This document shows positions 384 to 15,300 of a stretch of DNA of 64,000 nucleotides, piece by piece. Below the pieces are notes generated by a model. The model was given only the letters and a program-made list of their open reading frames with translations, made no database searches and was not told the origin of the DNA. Both the position numbers and the translations under genes were made by a program. The stretch's first letter is position 1; each line of letters begins with the position of its first letter. The stretch is taken from NCBI GenBank assembly GCA_013239625.1, contig MU053304.1, positions 2,976,001 to 3,040,000 of the forward strand. The letters are read 5' to 3'. Source of the DNA: Lama guanicoe. Taxonomy: Eukaryota.

Positions 384-3300
384 CTAATAAGGCAAATTTC
401 ACAAAGTTATTTCTTCTTTATCATTTAACTCCCTCTCTTTTTACAGGATGACATTTTCTAGGTCATTGTCGATGATCAATGCACTTAATGGGCTAGATTC
501 TCAGCACCCAGCTACAGAGCCCCTCAGCACCTCAGGCATTTGGAGAGCATGAATCTTTCTTTTTTCTTTTTTCTTTTTTTTTTTTTTTTGTACCTCAGTT
601 ATAAATTGGGCAAGTTCACCTTCTACTCACAACAGCAAGATTCATGCCATCTTGGAATGGGAGAATGGGAGAAGACCTAAGAATGCAACCACGCTAGCCA
701 TCCTTCTGCTCACTGCTGTCCCCTCAACCTCAGACATCACCACCAAGTGGAAATACACTGACTTTGAGCACCTTCTGGCTTGAGTGATTGGCTTATGAGT
801 AGGCAGCATAGTTCACTTTGCAATATTCAAAATGTCAGTAGAGTTTTCTTGTCGTCAGTCAAATGTGAGTTTTGCATCCTCCTCCCCATGCCTGTGACAG
901 ACACTCTTCCAAAGCAGCCGTGGTACCCTCCTCCCCTAGGGGACACCACTCACACTGCCTGTGGAAATGACAGCCCTGGCAGGGAGCGGTGCTGGGCGCT
1001 GCTGGTTCTCGCAGCTGCAGGGGCCAGGCACGCAACAGCCACACAAGAAGTGTGGGGGCTGCACAAAGTCCGTGAAAACCGCACATTCCTCCCAAAGGCA
1101 CCGCGTATTTTTGAAAATGTGAGGACCGCACCAGACAGTTTTCCTCCATTTTGTGATGCTAAAGCCTCAGGCAATCCACTGAAAAATGCATGCAGCTCAT
1201 CACACTGGGGTCCGCCAAGAAAATAGGGCAGATCAATGCAGACAGGGCTCTCTGCTGATGGCAAGGCAGAAGTGTCACCCCCCCCCCAGAAGCGCTGTCG
1301 TCTAGTGGGCCAGTATGCAGCGCTTTGGTGCTTTGGGATGAACTAAATAAATCAACAATATCTTAAAAGAGCCCAGGAATCTAAGGGCCGGCACTAAAAC
1401 AAGGCACAAACAACTAACACTGCCTCCCTAAACTCCCCAGGGTCTTCCGTGGCTGCAGAGCCGGCCTGGCTTAGCGTGAACCGTGCGCACTAGGACAGGC
1501 TGGTCCTCTGACAGACCAGCCCCAGCTTCTGTGGTTCCTGTCACAGCCTCCCACCTCTCTCCCCATCATGGGGAGGGATCTGACACTATTAATTGTGGCG
1601 TTGCCTCCGGAGTAGCTACATTTTAGTGATGCTTGTAGATAGTAAAATCCAAAGAAAGTAATCTGCAATTTTAGAAATTATCCACAATTAGGTAGAAAGG
1701 GGAGGTGTTTTAGAAAAAAGGAGAAGATGATTCTCAATACTTCTTAAGTTATGTGACCAGGAAGCTACCGAATCAACCAACCTATAAGCCAACCTCGTGG
1801 ATGTGACGTTTACCTTATTAGACCAGTTAAGCAATTTAAAAATTCTCTCAATGAGAATCACTGAGAGCGAGGCGGATTCTCTCCTCCGCGCCCTCTGAGG
1901 GCATCCCCACCCCACGCCGTTGTGGCTCCCCACTCCCTCCAGGCTTTCCTCCAGAGGCACCGCCCTATCATTATACCACATTCCTTCATTTTCTTCTCTT
2001 TCCACAACCTAAATTAGCCTAATCTCAATCTAATTCTTATAAAATGTTTCTAAATTAGTTAACTCACCATAAATTAACAGTTGAAAAAACGCTCAATATG
2101 TGTTCTCTTCCCCAAATATTAATATGTTATGAGGGGACATCCAAGGAAGAAACAATTTTGCTTAAAGAATAAGTCTCTACGGGGCTGTAAATCCCACCGC
2201 GGAGAACTCAGGTCCTGGCTTATTTTAGTTATTAACGCTGACCACCATCAACTGGATGTTAACCATTGGATCGATGGTGCCAGAGGAAATGTAGCAAACC
2301 TAAGGTAGGTACCAAATTCTTACTTTGTCTGGAGCAACTGAGATTCAGAATTCACAGAGCCTTGCAGTCGGCGGCAGAGTTCGCTCCTGTGGGTCTGCAA
2401 TGCAACTAAAATTAACTAGTGGATGTGGAAGACACTGGATGAGCCAGGGACCCTGGAAGAGGGGTGGGGGTGGGGCTGGACTCCTTTAGGTACTCAGCTT
2501 AGGAACTCTAACAGCCAATTTAAAAGGGAAACTGAGTAGACGGTATTTATTTCTCTCCTACCTGTAACGATTATGTCGCCTTTATAGTTGAAAGCGCATG
2601 AAAAAATCTCATCAGTGTGCCCCCCAAGAACCTGGAGGCACTGCCCAGTCTGAGCATCCCAGATTCTGGCCGTTTTGTCAGAGCTGCCAGTGAGAAGAAG
2701 GCTCCCTTGGGGGTTAAAAGAGATCTAACAGTAAAGAAACAGTAAAGAAAAAATAATTATCACAGGTTGGTACACCTTGATTTCCAGTATATTTTTAATC
2801 AGCGAAAAGAGGATGTTACTAAGTACCTGTCAGCTTCCCAGCCTGGTGTTTATTCTTACCGAGAACGGTTCCTTCAGGATGGGAAAAATAAATTGCAGGG
2901 ACTAATACATGAAAATTAAAATCTAGATGGTAAAGGTTGATTGCCTACCCCTCACACAAGATCCTAAGGTTAAAGCCAAAGCTCCCTTATAATTTGAGTG
3001 TTCCCCACCCGGCTTCTTTCCAAAGACTCTTGATGCAAATCTCTCCAGGCAGACAAAGAGGCGGGGCCCTTGTGCGGATGAGAGCACAAGGGGTCAAGCA
3101 TCTTCATACTCAAACTTCGATGCCACTCCTGCACCCCAGCTTTCTGTAATCAAAAGCACAGTGGTCTTCTTTCAGTCTACCCCACAGAATGTCGGGGTCT
3201 CTAAGAGAGGCCTTTTGGTCTATTGCTGCTTGCAGTACAGCACTTTCCATAAATGTGTCCCCCCTGGCCAGGCGTTGCCACATGGTGTCTGCGCAGCAAA

Positions 3301-6300
3301 GGAAACTGTCAGTCCTCAGTCCCTCTGGTCATCACGCTTATAACCTTTTCTAAGTCATCAAGGACAACAATTTGGGCCATTTCCTCTGACTGAAAGTCTG
3401 ATGAGGGCAGGGCACAAGCTACATCTTTTTCATCACAGAGTCACCTGGGCCTAGCACAATGCCTAGCACAGTGGAAGCTCTCAAAAAGCATTGGCTGAAT
3501 GAATGAATGAATGAATGAATGCCTTAGCCTGGCACCCCACAGAAATGCCACTACAGGATGGCACCTTCAATAAGTAACATATCATTAACAAGCATAAAAT
3601 GCAATCACAATGGAGTTAGAGAACTGTTTCTCTTTATACACACCCGACAACATGTGCACGTGCTGAGTGTGACATGTCAGACTCTTAGAATCATGGCCCC
3701 AGTTCTCTCCTCCGCCTGTCTCCCGCGTCCACACACCCCATCCCTCTTCCCGCCAGTCCCCCTGGCCTCCCAGCCTGTGAAGATGATGTGCTCTGCCCCA
3801 GAGACCAACCCTGATGGGCATGAGGGCAACGGCTGCTAACAGCAGGTGTGAGGCAGGAGGTGGGGAGAGGGCACAACAGGGGATGGTCCCAGGGTCCAGG
3901 GGGAGCTTGCAGAGACCTGAAACCATCAAGCTTATGTTTTCCAAGGAAGGAGCAAATCTGATCTCAGGTACAAGACCAAGGAATTGGGCTGAGCTGGGAA
4001 GTGAGAGTCACCGGTCCAGCCTTCTCTACAGTGTTCTGAGGACACTCGAAACCTTCAGTCACTTACTGGACAGCTCTGCTCTGTGGATAAGCTTTTGGGA
4101 GGAGCTTATATAAAATCCTAAACTACAGCTTCCAGCTCAGAATAGGTCATTTTTAACTTTGGGAAGGGTTAAGTCTGTCCAGGAAACGCTTCCTCATTTG
4201 CATCTAATCTAAAGGACTCTTGATATCTGCCGCACAGCATACTGTTTGCATAGCATAAACTTGCGTGTTCACCTGAACCAGGGCAAGCATCAGCTTCTTA
4301 ATGACTTGCATAAGCATCTTCAGCTAACTGAACCTTTTGCTTATGGCTGAGGAGAATGGTGTTTTATACTTTATAAAAGGTTTCAGAAATCATTTCTTAC
4401 GCGGAGTTTGAGGACACATTTAAAAAACAAAGTCCTTAAGTAACTGATTTTAGAAAGAATGAGATAACTGAACAAACCTTGGTACCCTCGGTGCCAGAAG
4501 ACCTATTTATACTAAGCACGCTGCCTATTTTTCGAAAACAAAACAAATGGCTCCAAATGAAAAAACAACTCACCTTTGAAATTTCGCCTTCATGGCCTTC
4601 CAATTTGGTAATGCATTTTCTTGTGGCTACACTGAATACTCTTGCTGTTCCTTTTTGAGAGGAGCAGAGATATATATAAATTCATCTGAAATACAGAACT
4701 TTGAGCCACATGCCTTGAATTACCTAAATATCTATCCCTCTGACACACAAACGCAGGGCTAAGTTTGTCTTCTTGCCTGCGGCGAGAGCCAGTCCCTGAA
4801 TACCAGAAATGCAAGCTGGCTTCACTGCAGAAGAGGGTAAAGAGGAGCATCTTGTTAGCCTCGAGGTTATTAGAAGAGATACTGGGTTCCAAGGTAGGCA
4901 GAGGCAGGGAGGACAGGAATCCAGAAAGAAGAAAATTTTGAAGACAAAAAAAGGAAATTAAAACAAGTTTTGAGAGGCCAATGATGAGATAAGCAAGACT
5001 AACATCATACACTAAATATGAGTCTAGGGTCACAGAAGATCTGAGAGGCCTTCCTCAGAAGGAACGGCAGGCACCACTCAATGAACAAAGAGCAAGCACT
5101 TTTCAACAGAAAGGGTTAATATAACGGTTTGCTCCCTGTTATATCTCCAGTGCCCAGAAGTGCCAAGCTCATAGTATACACTTAATAAACAGATGTAAGA
5201 TGGATGGATGGAAGAATGGATGGATGGACAGACGGACGGATGGATGGATGGATGGATGGGTGAACAGGTGGATGAAGTAGTATATACATTTTCTTAGAAT
5301 TAAGGAATAGATGAGTTAAATAAGCATAGAAGGAGAAAAACAGAAGTAGTGAAATCGTTGTCAGGAAAAAAAATTAAAATATATCTGGCCAGGTGAAGGA
5401 TGACTTCTCATCACAAATTACAGCATCACATCAAGGTAAAATTAGTAAGGACAGGGAGTTTTGGTTACTTAATTTTCATTTGGAGAAAAGCAATATATCT
5501 TAATAAAATTTTTTACTTACCTTTCTGACAATGTCAGCTTCATGGGGAAGTAGACAAAAATTGCTTTCTAGAATTAGCATGACTAAAAATATAAGACTTT
5601 CTACTTAGTTGGATTCCAAAAGTTTTAAAGGAAAGTGACCCACTCGTTTTAAGAGTTTGTCAATAAGACAAAAATGTCCAGCATAGATTAATACTTTAAA
5701 TTTTACAAAAGCCCAGAAAACACAAAAATAAGATAGCCTGAAGTTGTGACTTTTATAAGATAGAAATAGGAATAAGACACCAAAAAAAAAAATTCAGCCT
5801 TGGGAGTAATTCCAACGAGGATGAAAACGAGACACATATTTTAAAGAAACAGATGTGTAGCTGCACAGGCTACTAATTCCAGTAAATGAGATCAAATTTT
5901 AAGAAGAGAATGAGGAGCAAAGACCAGAGATGAAGAAAAAAAGGTTGCTCCAAACATCAGGACTTCTTAAGAGGCACAGAATGAGGAGAGGGTTACAAAA
6001 CAAACCAAAAGAAAGAAAGATTTTGGTGGGGAAGTAATGTGTTACCGAATGAGGGAAGAACAGAATCACGACTCGGGGAAATAACAAACAACAGAGAAGA
6101 CAAAACTAGAACTGGACTTATGCTTTATTCTCATCCATCCCTCAGCATTCTGAGCCTCGAGCCTGCTTGCTCCTCCCAGCAAAGCACTGGCCAACTCCTA
6201 ATATTCCATATACTTAGTCCATATAATCCAGCATTCTATAGCATCTAGTACTCTGTATAAAACACACGTGTGTGATTGTTCATTGTCTCCCCCTCCACCA

Positions 6301-9300
6301 TGAGAGAAGAGAGTCCTGTCTCTTTTGTTCATTGATGTATCCTATGTTCCTAAAACAATTCCTGGCACAAAGCAGGCACTCCATATATATTTAGTGAATA
6401 GGTTTTTTTGTGTAAATAATAACGGTTTTAAAATGAAAAGGGCAGATTAACTACGGTTGAAGGATGATTTTGAAAAGCCAAGATCTGTGAGAAGATGAAA
6501 AAGCAAGTGGCTACTTTAAAAAATAAAATTCTCCAGATTCAGGGTGTTTATGTTGCAGGATATAAAAAGAACATGTATGTGTGATCAAAGGATTAACTCT
6601 GAAAAGTCCTAGTGAGTAAGAGAACAAGCATGAGAATATAATTTTTAAAGGGGAGACAATTAAATAAAGACCATGTAATTAAAATGAATCACTGGCAAAA
6701 TTCAAAAACTGGTTGGAACATGAAGGGTGTGTAACTACTTAGAAGTACGTTGGTCACAAGGAGCAAAAACCGGCAAAGAACAAGTGAACAAGTCATGCCT
6801 GGAAACAGCATCCCATTTTTCCCAGAATTTCTTAAACAGCTGTTAAGGAATTTACCAAAGCACAATGTAGAGTCACATATGGTCATCAAGAGAGTTAAAC
6901 ATATGTGCAGCATCATATGTGATTACCAGAGGGATGACTTAGACTCTGAGTAAGAGCGGAGGCTTACTCATGGTGCCAGGGCCATGACTCAGTCATAGAG
7001 TAGAATGATATGCATTCGTGGTGGGGGCCACAGATATAGTGTCGTGTGTGGTCATCACACAGATGATGTGGACAGAGGGTGGCATCATGCATGGTCATGA
7101 GGGAGAAGACACAGACACAGTATAGGGTCAAATGTGGTCATCAGGAAGGTGATGCAGACAGAGTGTGGCCTCATATGTGTTCATCAGGGAGATGATCTAG
7201 ACACAGTATAGTGTCATACATTATTGATAAGAAGATGACATAGACATGGTTTAGAATCAAGGAGATGACACAGGCCTAGTTTAGCATCATACATGGCCAT
7301 CAATAAGATGATCCAGATGTAATATAGGATCATACAAGGGAGTCAGAATGTTGATGTAGACACAGTGTGCATTGTGTGCGGATTTCAAAGAGATAATGCA
7401 GCCACTATGATGTGTGGTTCTCAAGGAGATGAAAAGACATAGTGTAGCATCACATATGCCATCAAGGAGACAATGGAGACAGTGTATAGTCATCTGTGGA
7501 CTAGAGGGAGACAGCCCATACACAGTGCAGCAACATATGTGGTCATCAACAGATATATTGCAGCACCACGCATGGCCATCATGGATATGAAACAGACTAT
7601 ATAATCATACTCAGTTGTCTAGGAGATGATGCAAAATAGGATAGCACTCCACGTGGTTGTCAAGGAAATGATATAGACACAGTATAGAGCATTACACTTA
7701 GTTTTCAAGGAGATAACATGCACATTCATAATGTGGGATTATCAAAGAGAAAAAAACCCTTAATTTAAATATCATACATAGGTATCAGAGAGATAATGCA
7801 GTCATAACATAGCATCCCATGTGCTTGCCAAGCAGATTGTGCATATACAGCATTGCACTGTATATGGTTGTCAAGGTGACAACAGACATCTTGTGGCATC
7901 ATATAGTGTCATCAGTGAGGTAACTCACAGAACAGCAGCATACATAGTTATAGAAAATGATGTACACATAGTATAACTTCATATGTTATTATCAAGAAAA
8001 TGATGGAAAGTATACAACCAGACATTGTTGTCAAGGAGATGATTAGACATACTGTGGCATCAGATTCGGTTTTTATAGTGATGACACAGATACAGCACAG
8101 CATCACACATGGTCACCAGTGGGCTAAGGAAAACATACTGTTGTGTCGTACATGGTCATCGAGGTGATGACAAAGCTATTTAAATGTCACATGTATTCAT
8201 CAGAAATGTGACTGACATTGTGGAACATCAAGAATAGTTGGACACTAATGCAGAAGTAGTATATCATAATATGTAATTTTTCAAGAAGATGACACAGACA
8301 TAGTACAGTGTCATAAACTGTCCTCAGTGAAGTGAACTCTAGCATAATATCATAAAGCATGTTCAAGGACACGATGCAGATGGTATTATGCAGATGCATA
8401 ATGTAATGTGGTTATCAGAGGAGGAAGTAGTCACAATGTAGCATTTATGTGCTTATCAAGTATATGGCACATTGTGAAGCACAATGTGTCAACCCGATGG
8501 TTGACAGAAGTGATTATACCACGTCGTGATTAATGGGTGTAAGAAGCTGAGACATAGTATAGCTTCATACACAGTTATCAAGAAGCTGACTCAAACCAAG
8601 AAAGAGTAGGTGTTTACTCTGGAAATGACATATCCTATAGCATCATTTAACATTCTCAAGGAGATGGTGTCAACATATGATATGGAATCTTATGTAGATT
8701 TCAAAGCAGTAAGAGATATAGTATAGATTCTTGCACTGCATCATTAAATAATGGGGAAAAAGTGCAGCAGCATGAGAGGGTTCAGGGAGATGCCACAGTG
8801 TATCATCGTTCAAAGCCTTCAAGGATATGACACAGACATAGTGTAGCACTACACATGATCATTAGGAAGAAAACACAGTCACTCTGTAGAATCATACATG
8901 GTTGTTATGTGATGACACAGACATAGCATATCTTCATACATGGATTCCTTGGAGGTGAGGCATTGTGTATGATCATGCAGAGTAAAGAGGAAGATGAGGT
9001 TCACATCTATGGCATCATGTACATTTTGAAGAGAGGACACAACACAGTGAAGAATCAAACATGTCTTGAAAGGACACAGACACAGTGTAGCAGCATACAG
9101 GTCATCATAATGATGACTCAGACACTGACGTGTCACTCATGGTTGTCAGAGATGGTATAGATTTAGTGTAGCATTACACATAGGACACAGGTAAATATAG
9201 CATCTTCTCATAAAAGGGCTTTAAGATAGTGTAATAAATGAGGTCATCAGAGACATGATGCATATTATCATGCACGGTTATTAAAGATATTAATTATACA

Positions 9301-12300
9301 GACAAGAGATAGCATTACACATGGTTGTAAAGGGATGACACATACATAGCGTAACATTGTGTTTATTCGAGAACAAGATTAGGCAGGTGTAGAGTCCTAT
9401 CATACATGGTGAGCAAGAGGATGACACATACATAACGAAGCACCACGCCCAGTCAAAGAGATGCTACATACGTGGTGTGATATTACCAATGGTCAGGAGG
9501 TGGTGTAGATATGGTGTAGCAGAATACACTGTTACCAAAGGTACAACAAAATGTACTTGAGCATTGAGTGGTCATCAAGCAGATTAGACAGATATGGTTT
9601 AGCATCAAACGTTGTTTTCAAAGAGATGATAAAACATATTGCAGCATCATAGGTCGCTCCCTAGGTGATGAGTCCTAGGGAGCATGATGGTAATCAGGAG
9701 GACATGAAGTATTATCATGCACAGTCATCAGGAAAACAAGGCAGACATAATTCCATGCCACACGTGATCATCAGGAAGATAATACAGATGTGGTATAGCA
9801 ACATAGGTGATCTCTACAGAGATGAGGTACACATAGTACATCGTATGTGGTTATAAAGGACGTGACACGGTATCGTAGAAGAGATGGTTATCAAACAGTC
9901 AATACAGACATAGTGCAGCATCATAAGTGGTAATAAGAGATGATGCTGCACTCATCATACTAGAGCATCACACATGGATATCAAGAAAATTACATAAACA
10001 GATACAATGTAGCATAAGATATGTTCTTCTTGGAGATAATCCATATACTACCATAAACAGTTATGGGGGGAGGGTATAGCTCACTGGTAGAGGGCATGCC
10101 TAGCATGCACGAGCTCCTGGGTTCAAACTCCAGTAACTTCATTAAGAAAACACACCAACAAACAAATCTAATTACCTCCCCCCAACAAAGAAAATAAATT
10201 TTTAAAAAACAATTATGAAGGAGAAGATACATAAACAATTCAGAATTATGTGGTTATCAAGGAGATAAAGCAGACATAGTAATGCATCATACGAGACGTT
10301 CATTGGAATTGAGCAAACTTATAATAACATCACAGTAAATTATTGGTGGTTATTAAGGAGACGAAGTACACATAGTATAGCATCATGAACTTATCGAGGA
10401 AGGAGGAAGCTATATTGTAGCATCATGCACAGGAATAGGGAGGTGACACAGTGAGTAGAGTTGCACATAGTCATCAGGGTGATGACTCAGCACATAACAT
10501 CATACACTGTGGTTAAGGAGATTAGTAAATGAACAGCATTATACATAGTTATCAAGGAGATCAGGCACTGTAGATACTCAGAGGTTACTGTCCAGCAAGT
10601 AACCTTGAAATAGCACAACATTACACATGGTTATAAGAAAAAGATACAATCATAGTCCTGCATCCCACACAGTGTTCGAAGAGATGATGCTGACATCTGA
10701 CACTATAAACATGGTGACCAGGAAACTGACCCATAATATAGCATACTTTATGGTTACCAAGAAGAAGGAAATGTAGTGTAGCATTATACATCAACCCCCC
10801 CATCTGTGGTTTCACTTTCTGCAGTAACTGAGTTACCAGTTGAGTTAACTGGACCACCACAGTTGTGGTCCAAACATAGTAAATGGAAATTTTCAGAAAT
10901 AAACAATTCATAAGTTTTAAATTGCATGCTGTTCTGAGTGGCATGATGAAATCTTGCACTGCCCCACTCTGTCTTGCCAGAGAGGATGACGTAAGTGTGA
11001 GGTAGCATTATCTGCGGTCTTCAGGAAGATAACACATAGTGCAGCATGATACTTTATTACCAAGATAATGACTCATGGAAAAGCATCACACATGGTTGTG
11101 TGTTTTCACATGATGGCATAGACTTAGCATAATATCACAAATGCTTGCCAAGGGGATGATACAGATGGAGTGCAGCATCATATGTGGTTGTCAAAGAGAA
11201 AAGGCAGACATTGTATAGTATCACACATGGTTATCAAGGATATGATACAGACATATTGTAGTGTATTACAGGGTTGTCAGGAAATGATGCAAATATTGTG
11301 TAGTGTCTTACATGCTTGTCAGGAATAGTTACCATGAGCATGACCCATTGTTCAGTATCATAAATTGACATCCCAGACATGATGTATACATAATATTCCA
11401 ATACAGATGGTTGTCAATGAGATGATATAATCATATAGTATTACATGTGACTTTTAATGAGATGATGCAGTCCCGGGGCAGCATCATCCATATTTGTCAG
11501 CAAGATGAGTCCTAGTATTGCATCATACATGGTTATCCAGGAGATGATGCTGACATAGTTATACATCACAGGCAGCAGTCAAGGAGATAATGCAGGTGGA
11601 GTGTAACATCACACATGGTTTTTAAGGAGATGATGTGAATATAGTGTATTATCATGCATGGTCATCAGGAAGATGGCATTGTGGCCACCTGTTCATCGGG
11701 AAGACAATGCATGCAAAATGCAGTATCTGACTTGACCAGGAAGTGGAATAGACATAGTACAGTGTGATGTATTGTCATCAAAGAAATAACACAGCTATTG
11801 TAATGTCTTCATAAGTAGTTATCAAGGATATAATGCAAATATGACAGCATCAAACATGGTTTTAAAGGAGTGGATGAAAATACAGCACAGCATAATACAT
11901 CCCTTTCAAGGAGATGATGCAGATATAATGTAGTATTTGTCCTGGAGGGATGAGACAGACACGATATAACAGCACATGTGGTCAACAGGGAAATGATACA
12001 GATGTGTTGTAGCATCATTTGTGGACCTCATGGAATTGAGGTACACACAGTGTGGCACCAGCCCGTGGTTATCAATGAGACGACACACAGTGCAGAATCG
12101 TGACAACCAAGAAGGTGATACATAGCATAGAATCATGTATGTTCATGGTGAAGATTTGCTTGACATGGTAAAGCCGCACATGTGATTATAAAGGAGAAAA
12201 TGCAGATTTATTATAGCACCATCAATGGCGGTCAAGCTGATGAGAACAACCTAGGGCAGCATAATGCATGATCATCAGGGAGGCGACCCAAGACACACCG

Positions 12301-15300
12301 TTATATACAGTCATAAAGGAGATGATAAGAGCTGGTTTAGCACCATGTGCGGCTGTCAAGGAGGCGATGCAGACATTCAATAGCATCTCATGTGAGTATC
12401 AAGAATATGACCCAGACAATAGACTGACAGACATAGAAAACAAACTATGGTTACAAAAGGGGAGAGGGGTGAGGGGAGGGATAAATTAGGAGTTTGGGAT
12501 TAACATATACACACTACTATATGCAAAACAGATAAATAACAAAAACCTACTGTATTGCACAGGGAACTATATTAAATATCTTGTAATAACCCATAATGGA
12601 AAAGACTCTGAAAAAGAACACACATATGTGTATATGTATAATTGAATCACTTTGCTGTACACCTGAAACTAACACAACATTGTAAATCAACTACACTTCA
12701 ATAAGAATATGATATAGGCATAGTCCTGACATAGACTGACAGCACAAAGATGAGGCACATGCAGTTTCTAACATAGCTGGTCAGCAGGGAGATGCCCTGT
12801 AGTGTAGAACGTCACCTATTTATCAAGCAAAACATCGATCTCTCCATAAATTAAATGTACAAACAGATTACTTGCCATCAGCTGAAGCAGTTGCAATAAG
12901 CTTTCCAGTGTAGTCAAAACAGCTGTCTAGTATTTCATCATCATGGCCTGTTAATGTTGCCACACACTTTCCATTTGTAGCATCCCACAGCTACAGTTTA
13001 AAAAAAAAAAAAGAAGAAGACAAAGACTATGACTTCCTATCTAAAGTGCAAAGATGATCAGAAGTAGTCTTTATGACATGTTTATGGCTGGTAAAATACA
13101 CGTGGCCAAAATCACATTTGTAATTTTCACTTGTTGGTTCATTTTACCTTGATTCAGAACCAGAGACCAGAGCCAACCATCTAACAAGGCACACTCTGGA
13201 CATGGAGAAGACCAAAGATAGACATTTAGAATGAGTGGGGCAAATCTGCCACTATATTAGGAAAAAAATCTCAAAATGCATGCTTCACTGATTGGATTGG
13301 AAATGTCTTCTTTTCACATGAAGATCATCAAATGATCAAGAGCTTGATCTGAAACTACACTGTTAGAAAATGAAAAGTACATTAAGCTTATAATACATTT
13401 GCTATATAATCTATAGATCAAATAATAATTCTAAAGCACAAGCTGTTAGCAGCAGGAGCTTAAAGACAGGGAAACACTGTGGTGAGACTCGTTGAGGTTC
13501 ATGGTAATCAAAGTTTAATAAATGAACAGAGGGACATTAAACAAAAATAATGTGCCTTTTTAAAAAAGAAGGTATCTTAATACATTTGAATCAATTAAAA
13601 CTGTTTTACATCATAATTCCTTCAAATTTGGAGGATCAGAAACTTGAAATTTAAAAATTACCAATTATTGTTGATAAATTACCTTCATTTTAAAGCAACT
13701 TTAAAATGTGTTCTTGTCGCAGTGAATACCTGACACGGGGTGAAGTACAGCCACATGACTTATCAAGCAAAGAGATTTCTTGAGCTCACCATGCAGGTTT
13801 TGTCCATAGAGCCAGTTAAGATCAGAGAGCAATCCCAGTTGAATAAGGCGCTGCTGATCTCAGCACAATGCCCGATTAAGGTGTACACCTTCCTATAAAA
13901 ATGGAAATGGTTCAGAGTGGTGAAAAACGTCTCACTTCAGGATACATGCCCAAAGAATGATGTCAAACCCATTGGTGTGAGAGTCTGAATTTTAGTTTTT
14001 ATGAAATAATATCTGTGATGAACAAACAAAGATGGCTTTACTATAGCTCAAAAAGAGGCACCTAGGCTCCTAACTTCATTTCAACAGAAATACACTTAAA
14101 TTTTAAATAAACCGAGATAACAATATTACTTAATACAACACTTGAGAAAGGCATGGATAAAAAATAATAAGTGTAATCTGAAATTCTGGAAGTATTTTCA
14201 CGCCAGATGAGCAGACCCCTTCACAGCTCAGAAGCTATCCATCAGTCATCTGAGGACCCTTCCTCTCTCCCATTTCTTCTATCTCGATCAGCACCCCTGA
14301 TAATTAGCCCCTCTATCAAGTTGCAGACAAGTCCAAGAGTGGAGTTTTACAACACAAGTAAGCTAATTTAGTTAACTGCTTAGCAACTAGAACCAAAAAT
14401 AATAGGAAGGAAATTGAAGTTCTTGGACTAAATTAAATTTGGATCATTAACCGTGATTTTTTTTTATTCATGATACCCATGCCTACCGTAATGACAAACC
14501 ATTGAAATTTGATTATATAGTACACGGGATAAATAATAGCTATATAACCAGGCCATTGCTGGCCTCCCCTTTTTATGTTGTTGTTTGGCATTGATTGCTC
14601 AGAATTTCAAGGAAGCACATATTTTTGGTGGATCAGAAATATCATTAAAGAATGAATTAATTTGCTTTCAACGTGTCTTATTCCTATGGAATCTAAAGCA
14701 AAGTTCATAGATTTAACATTAAACTAATAAATAACAAAGATTATCTTCCTAACCTTCTGATTCAAGTTGAAAAACTCTTAAAAACTAGAATACCTTCCAC
14801 TATCAGCCTCCCACACTATCACTGTGTGATCAAAAGACCCCGTGATGATCCTGTTTCCCAAGGTGTTAAAGGACAAGGAGATAATTTCAGCTGAATGTCC
14901 CTAGAAAAAGAGCAGATGTCATCATGTGTACCTGCAGATAAAACAACTTCTACAAATGCATAACATGATAGTCTAACAGGAAATGCTTTAAAAAAAAAAA
15001 GACAAAGCTATTCTATAGGGAGAAAAGAGACTAGCAGTTGGCTGGGGGTGGGAATAGGGAGGGACTGCAAATAATGAGCAACACAGTTTCTTCTAGGGGA
15101 GGGGTAACAGAAATGTTCTAAAACTTGATTTGGGTGATGGTCGCACAATTCTGTAAATTTACTAGAAATTGACTTAGACACTTGGAACAAGTCTAACTCT
15201 ATAAAGCTGTTTTTAAAGAAAGGAAAAGGACGTGTCAGGAAATCAAAAGGCTTCCTACATACTGTCTTGGAAACGCTCAGAAGGGCTGTATGCTTTATGG

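Follow-up and report, generated by a model that had tools for sequence, protein, structure and literature searches.

A decayed 43-bp tandem array in intron 10 of DAW1 as a probable fossil minisatellite

A ~6-kb array of degenerate 43-bp units in intron 10 of DAW1 is probably a fossil minisatellite, the product of one burst of amplification before the mammalian orders concerned had split, followed by independent and near-neutral decay. The 43-bp unit would have been amplified head to tail in a single burst within the intron, likely by replication slippage or unequal exchange, earlier than the last ancestor shared by camelids, carnivores, and bats. Homogenisation would then have ceased, and each unit would have decayed alone at an approximately neutral rate, fastest at CpG sites. 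Three insertions of retroelements or other interspersed repeats would have arrived later and been tolerated. The array would now be transcribed only within the DAW1 pre-mRNA and be excised together with its intron. Its sole visible effect may be that decayed units occasionally provide cryptic splice sites, which gene predictions in some species would take as alternative terminal exons, yielding a truncated DAW1.

The period was determined by autocorrelation within the 64-kb window (the whole stretch of DNA analysed). Over 6841-12830 the match fraction at lag 43 was 0.329, compared with a mean of 0.268 (sd 0.0105) for lags 1-300, and 0.301 at lag 86; the lag-43 signal was absent from three control stretches of the window. 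A dimer HMM was built from 84 adjacent unit pairs. With nhmmer at E ≤ 1e-3 all 80 of its matches were on the plus strand between 6860 and 12825, with none elsewhere in the 64 kb, and a single-seed nhmmer search at E ≤ 10 gave 54 matches, again all on the plus strand, within 6888-12390. The HMM matches, the autocorrelation, and a profile parse together place the whole array at 6860..12825 (+, unit as written). The unit is given on the plus strand, and DAW1 is transcribed from the minus strand. The wraparound profile parse aligned 5118 bases (~119 units) in 147 pieces, 106 of which covered at least 35 of the 43 columns, and (5966 - ~625)/43 gives an alternative estimate of ~124. The 43-bp period over ~6 kb, the ~120-130 copies (about 119-124 unit equivalents here), and the ~0.63 kb of insertions (three dispersed repeats) of the original prediction were all confirmed. 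Indels were sparse: against 5098 matched columns, 20 bases were inserted and 141 columns deleted. Since the parse maximises matches, its per-column statistics are biased towards the consensus, which was GGAGATGATGCAGACATAGTATAGCATCATACATGGTTATCAA. This agrees with the consensus proposed earlier but differs from it at three transition sites. The ancestral unit has a short internal palindrome and several CpGs.

With a 10-100-bp unit repeated head to tail over hundreds to thousands of bases, the array is a minisatellite. Tandem Repeats Finder, which had been named as a check, did see the repeat, but under default-like settings it called only 7047-7218 (170 bp of 6 kb). Standard tandem-repeat finders overlook ~97% of such an array. 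Twelve stop-to-stop frames of at least 70 codons were present in the array and no long ORF was found. Because 43 is not a multiple of 3 and the longest frame has only 128 codons and runs across an inserted repeat, the array is counted as non-coding, as had been claimed. The part of the ULTRA paper considered here (Bioinform Adv 2024, PMC11580682) handles highly decayed tandem repeats as a problem of annotation and masking, by model-based labelling. The DAW1 array is like such repeats in that it is arranged head to tail, too diverged for score-threshold tools, non-coding, and without higher-order structure. It is unlike those of that part of the paper, where the locus is not described, in being long (~120 units), single-locus, and datable via gene models of other species.

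DAW1 was mapped to the minus strand of the window by tblastn of DAW1 proteins. The WD-repeat exon at 12876..12987 (-), 92-100% identical to named DAW1 proteins, is the 10th coding exon mapped in this way and lies directly upstream of the array in the transcript. Coding exon 11 was located at 4574..4650 (-) by tblastn of many DAW1 proteins and from sequence and frame, and the acceptor AG of intron 10 was read from the sequence at 4652-4651 (-). The donor is GC, not GT (GCAAGT, 12874..12875, -). It is the sole junction that keeps the frame into exon 11 (...ASADG|TARVF...), and the GT four bases downstream leads to a stop. Two camel gene models appear to have gone wrong at this GC donor. Intron 10 (12875..4651) is 8225 nt long and the array span covers 73% of it, in line with the claim that the array fills most of the intron. 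The array does adjoin the exon-10 donor as described, but at a distance of 49 nt and not ~45.

Three insertions interrupt the array. A tRNA-derived SINE at 10066..10210 (+) was recognised from an Rfam tRNA match at 10070-10141 (+; 36.8 bits, E 6.9e-5), from its genome copies, and from the broken array phase. An 11-base duplication differing at one base flanks it, and its 3998 first-look candidates in the genome included 39 other scored copies of 79-85% identity. The second, a fragment of an older interspersed repeat at 10792..10984 (strand not assigned), was identified from genome copies (696 first-look candidates; 39 other copies scored, 76-91% identical), and the HMM found no units between 10791 and 10985. 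The third is an L1-type 3' end at 12419..12705 (+), located from genome copies and the phase table, with 12061 first-look candidates and 39 full-length copies scored at 85-89% identity; unit phase is equal on both of its sides (columns 41-16). The 460 bp adjoining the left array edge are unique in the genome, and an old repeat lies farther left, at 6293-6400.

Two degenerate unit patterns were searched in the 2.05-Gb genome with up to three mismatches. They gave 8 and 7 matches, every one inside the array, and the reversed control patterns gave none in the same scans; these scans score the best candidates only, so that solo units or very short arrays may escape them. The full 43-letter consensus at ≤3 mismatches had zero matches in the genome, its own array included, the units having diverged too far from it. 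The L1 insertion dominated a BLAST search with the whole array. When TE-free stretches of 3.2 kb and 1.5 kb were used instead, BLAST recovered the array itself and, beyond it, only 23 matches, all of them on the end of the inserted repeat at 10792-10984. The two pattern scans and the BLAST of TE-free parts thus bear out the locus-specific nature claimed for the array, and support its confinement to one genomic locus, solo units or tiny arrays aside. Many unrelated genomic copies, as a satellite or transposon would have, were not found for the unit; the three insertions gave 696-12061 candidates. An origin as an internal tandem repeat of an old transposable element, or as one locus of a dispersed satellite family, is extremely unlikely. 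Many TEs carry internal minisatellites, and solo units or very short arrays could have been missed, but the absence of pattern matches outside the array, the BLAST result, and the unique 460 bp at the left edge all speak against it. At least 118 metagenome loci with the unit pattern were put down to chance; the dimer HMM matched the pattern site alone (E 0.015-1) with no array, and these loci are uninformative on other mammals. Titles and abstract openings of the literature on DAW1 intronic tandem repeats, WDR69 minisatellites, and ancient or degenerate minisatellites held nothing relevant.

The 106 near-complete units were 70.6% identical to the consensus, and unit divergence from the consensus corresponded to a K2P of 0.30-0.39. 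Pairwise identity between units was 0.55-0.57 at each lag from 1 to 12 and 0.56 across all pairs. The spatial autocorrelation of variants along the array had a mean z of 0.10 over the 43 columns, and no neighbour similarity or variant clustering was found among the units. Unit decay is star-like. The high unit identity and greater likeness of neighbours that mark an active hypervariable VNTR were not observed. Classical locus-specific minisatellites, or VNTRs, have 10-100-bp units in kilobase arrays, and the DAW1 array is like them in unit length, array length, and single locus, with a probable origin by slippage or unequal exchange. Active minisatellites combine highly similar units with neighbour similarity and copy-number polymorphism, whereas between DAW1 units identity is 56% whatever the spacing. 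Of 31-letter words sampled from the array, a fraction of 0.93-1.00 was present in sequencing runs of organisms A-E, which speaks to word content only. With identity the same at every spacing and 93-100% of these words present in close relatives, the array may be frozen. Its significance is small as it stands, that of a datable example of a large minisatellite dying, with the stages of burst, loss of homogenisation, CpG-led neutral decay, and TE insertion.

The four column pairs with the highest mutual information were all adjacent (32-33, 9-10, 25-26, and 15-16), with CG replaced by TG, CA, and TA, and the strongest couplings are thus CpG-decay pairs. CpG observed/expected was 0.23-0.25 in the array versus 0.29 in the flanks, and the CpG depletion matches that of bulk DNA. 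Outside 16 CpG-like columns, chi-square tests of conservation within base classes gave p=0.17 for G, p=0.77 for T, and p=0.03 for C; for A, p=0.22 was obtained after column 43 had been dropped. Homogeneity is imperfect at column 43 and at the C columns. Conservation by base followed the order A>T>C~G, as expected from the known GC-to-AT mutation bias. Co-variation of columns 38 and 43 (MI 0.218), together with the unevenness of column 43 and the C columns, sits less well with the fossil reading.

The age of the array was assessed from DAW1 isoforms predicted in other mammals. Alternative C-terminal tails of such isoforms in mink, grey seal, and the horseshoe bat Rhinolophus correspond to translations of the minus (transcribed) strand of the array. 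Residues 333-379 of mink isoform X2 (P0036) aligned with 12079-11939 at 53% identity (E 1.7e-9), and by the tail alignment 11921..12094 (-) is the array segment whose position is orthologous to that isoform's alternative terminal exon. The local score was 132; the two remaining frames reached 47 and 46 at best, and the highest of 200 shuffles reached 65. The mink tail reached 51 bits at 12094-11921 versus 24.6 and 23.5 bits at other units. As it fits one place far better than the others, much of the divergence between units predates the camel-mink split. For grey seal isoform X6 and Rhinolophus isoform X3, the tails scored 57 and 55, above every one of 200 shuffles in each case (maxima 49 and 53), and matched best two neighbouring units at 11168..11264 (-). 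Where in the array they belong is uncertain, the next best score being 44. The three tails begin at different array positions. Two unnamed ORFs among 1.84 billion proteins also matched the array translation (E 4e-7 and 1.9e-6). In a simulation, the camel-mink amino-acid identity of 53% corresponded to ~25% raw nucleotide difference, about as much as neutral sequence differs between these orders. Divergence of the array between orders would therefore be about that of unconstrained DNA.

These comparisons of predicted proteins support an array older than the shared ancestor of camelids, carnivores, and bats. The original prediction had called it old, and the K2P values, the three later insertions, and the presence in carnivores and a bat agree with this. 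We give very little credence to a younger array that only looks old, through fast tandem mutation or through assembly from already heterogeneous units. Its points are the co-variation of columns 38 and 43 (types TCATCAG and TTATCAA), a hint that the ancestral units came in two variants, and the roughness of consensus-based dating of tandem repeats. It is opposed by unit-specific differences common to orders, as in the placement of the mink tail, by the occurrence of the array in Carnivora and Chiroptera, by the lack of neighbour similarity among the units, and by inserted SINE and L1 copies that are 79-89% identical to their best relatives.

Under the fossil reading, the array accounts for odd C-terminal tails of predicted DAW1 isoforms in several mammals. 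Intronic repeats such as Alu or L1 yield cryptic exons by exonisation, and the decayed DAW1 units likewise supply alternative terminal exons in the predicted isoforms of mink, grey seal, and Rhinolophus. Here, unlike in Alu or L1 exonisation, the source is a tandem array and not a transposon, and exon starts differ by species. Recurrence of such exons in the predictions of three species weighs somewhat on the other side, as use rather than noise is possible. The tail of a vole isoform (P0077) was rejected as array-derived, with 45 of 200 shuffles reaching its score, as were those of pig (P0021) and camel (P0009); the P0099 tail was borderline (1/200 shuffles). In human isoform P0038 the last nine residues before the stop resemble the array consensus peptide, a stretch too short for statistics. 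P0122 (1037 aa), with 14 weak stretches in phmmer, is an unrelated near-perfect tandem-repeat protein and was discarded as a spurious match. A protein-word search with the mink tail retrieved only the tail itself (1 of 11 candidates), and a profile of the array ORFs scored none of 3190 candidates among longer proteins.

The original prediction had further suggested a cis-regulatory or RNA-structural module, and this part gained no support from the tests made. Weak constraint may still act on the array. The only consistent stem of the unit pairs columns 6-11 with 24-29 (6 bp in the ancestral unit). Watson-Crick pairs observed/expected were 65/66.4, 49/54.4, 75/73.3, 52/46.3, 43/41.7, and 47/46.8, so that neither the six stem pairs nor three boundary pairs showed covariation beyond independence. 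When 150-nt windows of the array (n=5-11) were folded and compared with shuffles, the mean z was -1.17 and -0.71 for the minus strand, with plus-strand values of -0.70 and -0.77; the flanking intron gave 0.05 and -0.12. This slightly better folding is a point against the fossil reading, as is the long preservation of ~6 kb and of the 43-bp phase beside a weak GC donor. The fold excess is found on both strands, as leftover palindromy of the DNA would give, and is not strand-specific as in a structured RNA. No Rfam family matched the array units. Signs of regulatory DNA, namely CpG retention or motif columns better conserved than their base class, were not found, and conservation across units was uniform within base classes outside the CpG-like columns, an outcome that the original prediction itself had named as speaking against function. 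What we take to be SMAD-type CAGAC and E-box-like motifs are present in the unit; they were rejected as conserved sites, being no better conserved than their base classes.

A working intronic module kept by selection, that is an array of RNA hairpins, protein-binding sites, or enhancer-like elements tuning DAW1 splicing or expression, is thus highly unlikely. The 49-nt distance to the weak donor, persistence since before the camelid/carnivore/bat split, the mildly negative fold z-scores, and the terminal exons predicted in three species would suit it. They are countered by a stem without covariation, a fold signal equal on both strands, the missing Rfam match, uniform conservation within base classes, CpG decay as in bulk DNA, three tolerated TE insertions, near-neutral divergence between orders, and tails that start at different array positions, as noise would. 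Functional intronic VNTRs of human genes and the repeat domains of Xist and FIRRE have conserved motifs or conserved pairing. The DAW1 array is like them in consisting of short repeated units in a transcribed non-coding region, but neither conserved motifs nor pairing were found in it. If constrained, the array would be one of the rare ancient intronic repeats with a function, here in a ciliopathy-related gene. In a very unlikely variant, the array would be a conserved "premature-termination nursery" 49 nt behind the GC donor, whose decayed units provide cryptic acceptors and terminal exons again and again, so that a share of DAW1 transcription ends in truncated products and the amount of this dynein-arm assembly factor is thereby set in ciliated and reproductive tissues. 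On that reading it could go back to all placentals, since its age by decay seems about double that of the camelid-carnivore split. In two RNA runs with the label reproductive system, 0.24 of the words of 6830-10048 were present, which is no evidence of expression above that of pre-mRNA.

The array was detected as an excess of base matches at a spacing of 43 bp. Across 6841-12830, the lag-43 match fraction was 0.329, compared with a mean of 0.268 (sd 0.0105) for lags 1-300, and the lag-86 fraction was 0.301. No lag-43 peak was present in three control stretches of the window. A search with nhmmer using an 86-nt seed derived from the window gave 54 matches at E ≤ 10, all on the plus strand and all inside 6888-12390. 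To parse the units, a wraparound profile parser of our own was applied in which entry was charged 20 bits and a gap 5 bits, as laxer penalties over-called everywhere. Within 6830-12794 it placed 5118 bases in the alignment, equivalent to ~119 units, and converged on the unit consensus GGAGATGATGCAGACATAGTATAGCATCATACATGGTTATCAA. A dimer HMM made from 84 adjacent unit pairs yielded 80 matches at E ≤ 1e-3 over the 64-kb window, all on the plus strand and spanning 6860 to 12825, with none outside the array. The array is a head-to-tail 43-bp repetition in one block on one strand, and the longest open frame in the region has 128 codons. Tandem Repeats Finder (TRF) reported only 7047-7218 of it (period 43, 3.0 copies, 73% matches; also period 86), which places the array well under the usual detection thresholds. 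The original prediction, made from the sequence alone, had described ~120-130 degenerate 43-bp units at 6841..12830. Its coordinates, period, consensus and copy number hold on the lag-43 signal, the profile parse and the dimer HMM, and the observation was confirmed in almost all details.

The distribution of the unit was investigated in the same assembly (2.05 Gb, 55231 contigs). In BLAST-type searches, the transposon-free segment 6830-10048 returned a single candidate, itself. Segment 10921-12418 returned itself and 23 matches, all within its first 66 bases, which are part of an inserted repeat. A 601-base piece of the array also found only itself. When as many as 3 mismatches were allowed, the pattern AGCATCAYRYRTGGTYRTCARGGAGATGA had 8 forward matches genome-wide, all within the array; no reverse matches and no matches to the reversed control were found in the 2.05-Gb genome. 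The pattern RTGGTYRTCARGGAGATGAYRCAGAYAYAGTR had 7 genome-wide matches, again all within the array, and none for its controls. Solo units or tiny arrays might slip past both kinds of search. A dispersed satellite or the interior of a multicopy element is ruled out for the guanaco genome by these self-only matches, and the predicted locus specificity is borne out. A spaced pattern of 17 bases, for which each half of the array served to validate the other, was also run on metagenomes, where at least 118 loci matched; none among the matches listed has an array. The 1.56-kb left flank is unique in the genome apart from an old interspersed repeat at 6293-6400, 460 bp left of the array, which has 12 genome matches of 74-89% identity and is unrelated to the 43-bp unit.

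The array is interrupted at three places. Once located and summed, the interruptions came to ~0.63 kb, the total claimed for them. A tRNA-derived SINE lies at ~10066-10210, bordered by AAACAGTTATG and AAACAATTATG. Its head matched the Rfam tRNA model at 10070-10141 (36.8 bits, E 6.9e-5), and no tRNA gene was called in the SINE by ARAGORN. The genome gave 3998 first-look candidates for further copies, and the 39 others scored were 79-85% identical. An interspersed repeat at ~10792-10984 had 696 genome candidates, with scored copies 76-91% identical. The segment ~12419-12705, which we take to be an L1 3' end from its appearance, had 12061 candidates; 39 full-length copies were scored at 85-89% identity. 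Unit phase is identical to the left and right of this insert (columns 41-16, where columns are positions 1-43 of the unit consensus). All three elements landed in a pre-existing array.

The parse consisted of 147 pieces, 106 of which span 35 or more of the 43 columns. For these near-complete units, identity to the consensus was 70.6% (sd 6.9%, lowest 50%, highest 88%). Identity between units was 0.55-0.57 for each spacing from 1 to 12 and 0.56 across all pairs. No spatial clustering of variant bases was found over the 43 columns (mean z 0.10), only column 22 differed between the array halves (p=0.006), and the array had no higher-order repeat structure. The flat identity and the unclustered variants indicate a single amplification, after which each unit decayed alone. 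Indels were scarce: for 5098 matched columns, the units had gained 20 bases by insertion and lost 141 columns by deletion. The Kimura distance to the consensus was 0.30 in the 27 non-CpG-like columns and 0.39 in all 43, both lower bounds because the parse maximizes matches. Columns 38 and 43 covary, with C38 accompanied by G43 in 15 units and T38 by A43 in 40 units (mutual information 0.218). Two ancestral forms of the unit (TCATCAG and TTATCAA) may have existed, both now strewn along the array.

The transition:transversion ratio among units was 1.6. TG, CA and TA dominated several adjacent column pairs in which CG was nearly gone, most clearly at 9-10, 30-31, 32-33 and 38-39. The top four mutual informations of the 903 column pairs (mean 0.065) all belonged to adjacent columns: 32-33 (0.309), 9-10 (0.265), 25-26 (0.251) and 15-16 (0.234). 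This is the expected product of CpG decay by either C>T or G>A. Conservation was 62% in the 16 CpG-like columns and 76% in the remaining 27. Homogeneity was tested within each base class with the CpG-like columns set aside, giving p=0.17 for G (9 columns), p=0.77 for T (5 columns) and p=0.03 for C (4 columns). For A, the value was p=1.5e-6 with 9 columns and p=0.22 with the 8 left without column 43, an A/G mix. Conservation ranked A (0.85) over T (0.78) over C and G (0.70 and 0.69), which agrees in direction with the common GC-to-AT mutation bias. The CpG observed/expected ratio was 0.23-0.25 in the array and 0.29 elsewhere in the intron and window; the corresponding GC contents were 0.39-0.40 and 0.41. 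No protected block was found among the 43 columns. By the per-column class tests, rates outside CpG sites are essentially uniform and neutral-looking, an outcome that the original prediction had itself named as refuting and that speaks against a functional reading.

In the consensus, TGATGC at columns 6-11 and GCATCA at columns 24-29 form a 6-bp dyad that could pair, and the unit boundary is spanned by a shorter dyad. Watson-Crick pairs were counted against the independence expectation, giving 65 observed and 66.4 expected for 6-29, 49 and 54.4 for 7-28, 75 and 73.3 for 8-27, 52 and 46.3 for 9-26, 43 and 41.7 for 10-25, and 47 and 46.8 for 11-24. The boundary pairs gave 61/58.4, 41/43.3 and 57/57.9. 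The counts equal the expectation, and no covariation was found in the 6-bp stem or the boundary pairs. When 150-nt windows were folded and compared with dinucleotide shuffles, mean z values for the array were -1.17 (n=11) and -0.71 (n=5) on the minus strand and -0.70 and -0.77 on the plus strand; the flanking intron gave 0.05 and -0.12 (n=13). The weak excess, equal across strands, is as left by a decaying DNA palindrome. Rfam had no match at E ≤ 1 over 2500-13100 except the tRNA head of the SINE. The proposed regulatory or RNA-structural module gained no support from stem covariation, Rfam, strand-equal folding or per-column conservation.

The host gene was defined with the translated exon at 12987-12876 (minus), which matched 156 of 235 candidate proteins at E ≤ 0.001. 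Those named as mammalian were nearly all DAW1/WDR69, with 90-100% identity and Camelus among the best. By tblastn of DAW1 proteins on the window, coding exons 1 to 11 were placed on the minus strand at 39022-38939, 30139-30068, 26459-26310, 24880-24800, 22509-22366, 20633-20496, 16725-16618, 14900-14793, 13894-13787, 12987-12876 and 4650-4574, with later coding exons at ~2724-2551 and 2284-2228. Counted in coding exons, the numbering of exon 10 and intron 10 was right. Intron 10 (12875..4651, 8225 nt) has its acceptor at 4652-4651 and a GC donor (GCAAGT, 12875-12874 minus), assigned because only the GC-donor junction preserves the frame ...ASADG/TARVFS.... A GT 4 bases past the GC donor leads to a stop codon. 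The array spans 5966 nt, 73% of the intron, and stops 49 nt away from the donor; in the DAW1 pre-mRNA, the unit given here appears as its reverse complement. A (GATG)n/16-bp microsatellite lies in the same intron at 5192-5259 (TRF, 15 copies, 85% matches). Two camel gene models (P0009 and P0086) run on as ...ASADGK, as in read-through or splicing at the nearby GT, and are probably mis-predicted at the exon-10 junction.

Predicted protein isoforms of other species were read as fossils of the array. Several DAW1 isoforms depart from the normal sequence at the exon-10 donor, directly behind ...ASADG. Residues 333-379 of mink isoform X2 (P0036) were 53% identical to the minus-strand translation of 12079-11939 (E 1.7e-9). 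The local alignment of this tail reached 12094-11921 with a score of 132, against 47 and 46 in the other two frames, 32 on the plus strand, 39 in a control region and 65 for the best of 200 shuffles. The tail of grey seal isoform X6 (P0028) scored 57 against 49 for its best shuffle, and that of Rhinolophus sinicus isoform X3 (P0035) scored 55 against 53. Each score was reached by 0 of 200 shuffles, and the two tails fitted best to neighbouring units at 11264-11168. Tails from vole (P0077), pig (P0021) and camel (P0009) were rejected as array-derived, since 45, 99 and 44 of 200 shuffles, respectively, reached their scores. The 78-residue open frame 12142-11909 was compared by phmmer with 1.84 billion representative proteins, 3 of which matched at E ≤ 0.001. 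Two were ORFs of 144-145 residues (E 4.0e-7 and 1.9e-6; 55% and 44% identical), which matched the mink tail at 47% over 73 residues and 52% over 52 residues. The third (P0122) was judged spurious, an unrelated near-perfect repeat protein matching in 14 weak stretches. This 1037-residue protein comes from a 121-kb contig and consists of near-identical ~58-residue repeats, which makes it a striking example of a tandem repeat in coding frame.

The matching tails of mink, seal and Rhinolophus place the array in Carnivora and Chiroptera besides the camelid. The age assigned to the minisatellite is thereby supported, as it predates the camelid/carnivore/bat ancestor. The mink tail scored 51 bits at one place in the array versus 24.6 and 23.5 bits at other units, so much of the divergence between units already existed at the camelid/mink split. 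In a simulation on the camelid segment, 53% amino acid identity corresponded to a raw difference of ~25% at the nucleotide level (5-95% range about 0.18-0.32), or about 0.13-0.14 substitutions per lineage. This is about half the distance of the units from the consensus and roughly the neutral divergence between such orders. From these values we infer that the burst would be about twice as old as the camelid-carnivore split, and it may predate the placental radiation. In human isoform P0038, the tail after ...ASAD presumably derives from an antisense-Alu exon, judging by the look of such peptides. Its last nine residues before the stop resemble the array consensus peptide, a stretch too short for a test, and hint that the human intron also holds the array.

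The three array-derived tails, cryptic terminal exons in the predicted isoforms, start at differing positions, 781 nt and ~1.6 kb from the donor, and the window sequence has no AG at the position of the mink exon start. The simplest reading of the predicted tails is sporadic, lineage-specific exonization of decayed units within a long intron and behind a weak GC donor. Such exonization would yield truncated DAW1 products without the last WD repeats. In the parts of the literature on intronic tandem repeats and minisatellites that were consulted, no description of a DAW1/WDR69 intronic array was found. The ULTRA paper (PMC11580682) treats "highly decayed tandem repeats" as an already recognized difficulty for annotation, and the array belongs among them. 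It is a fossil minisatellite, a fresh example of an already known class, and its general significance is low. The old locus-specific minisatellite of the original prediction stands, and the regulatory or RNA-structural role suggested for it gained no support from any of the tests applied. There is a small residual chance that the position next to the GC donor and the recurrent predicted exonization matter biologically. Two RNA-seq runs labelled reproductive system (X16 and X17) contain 0.24 of the words sampled from 6830-10048, possibly from plain pre-mRNA.
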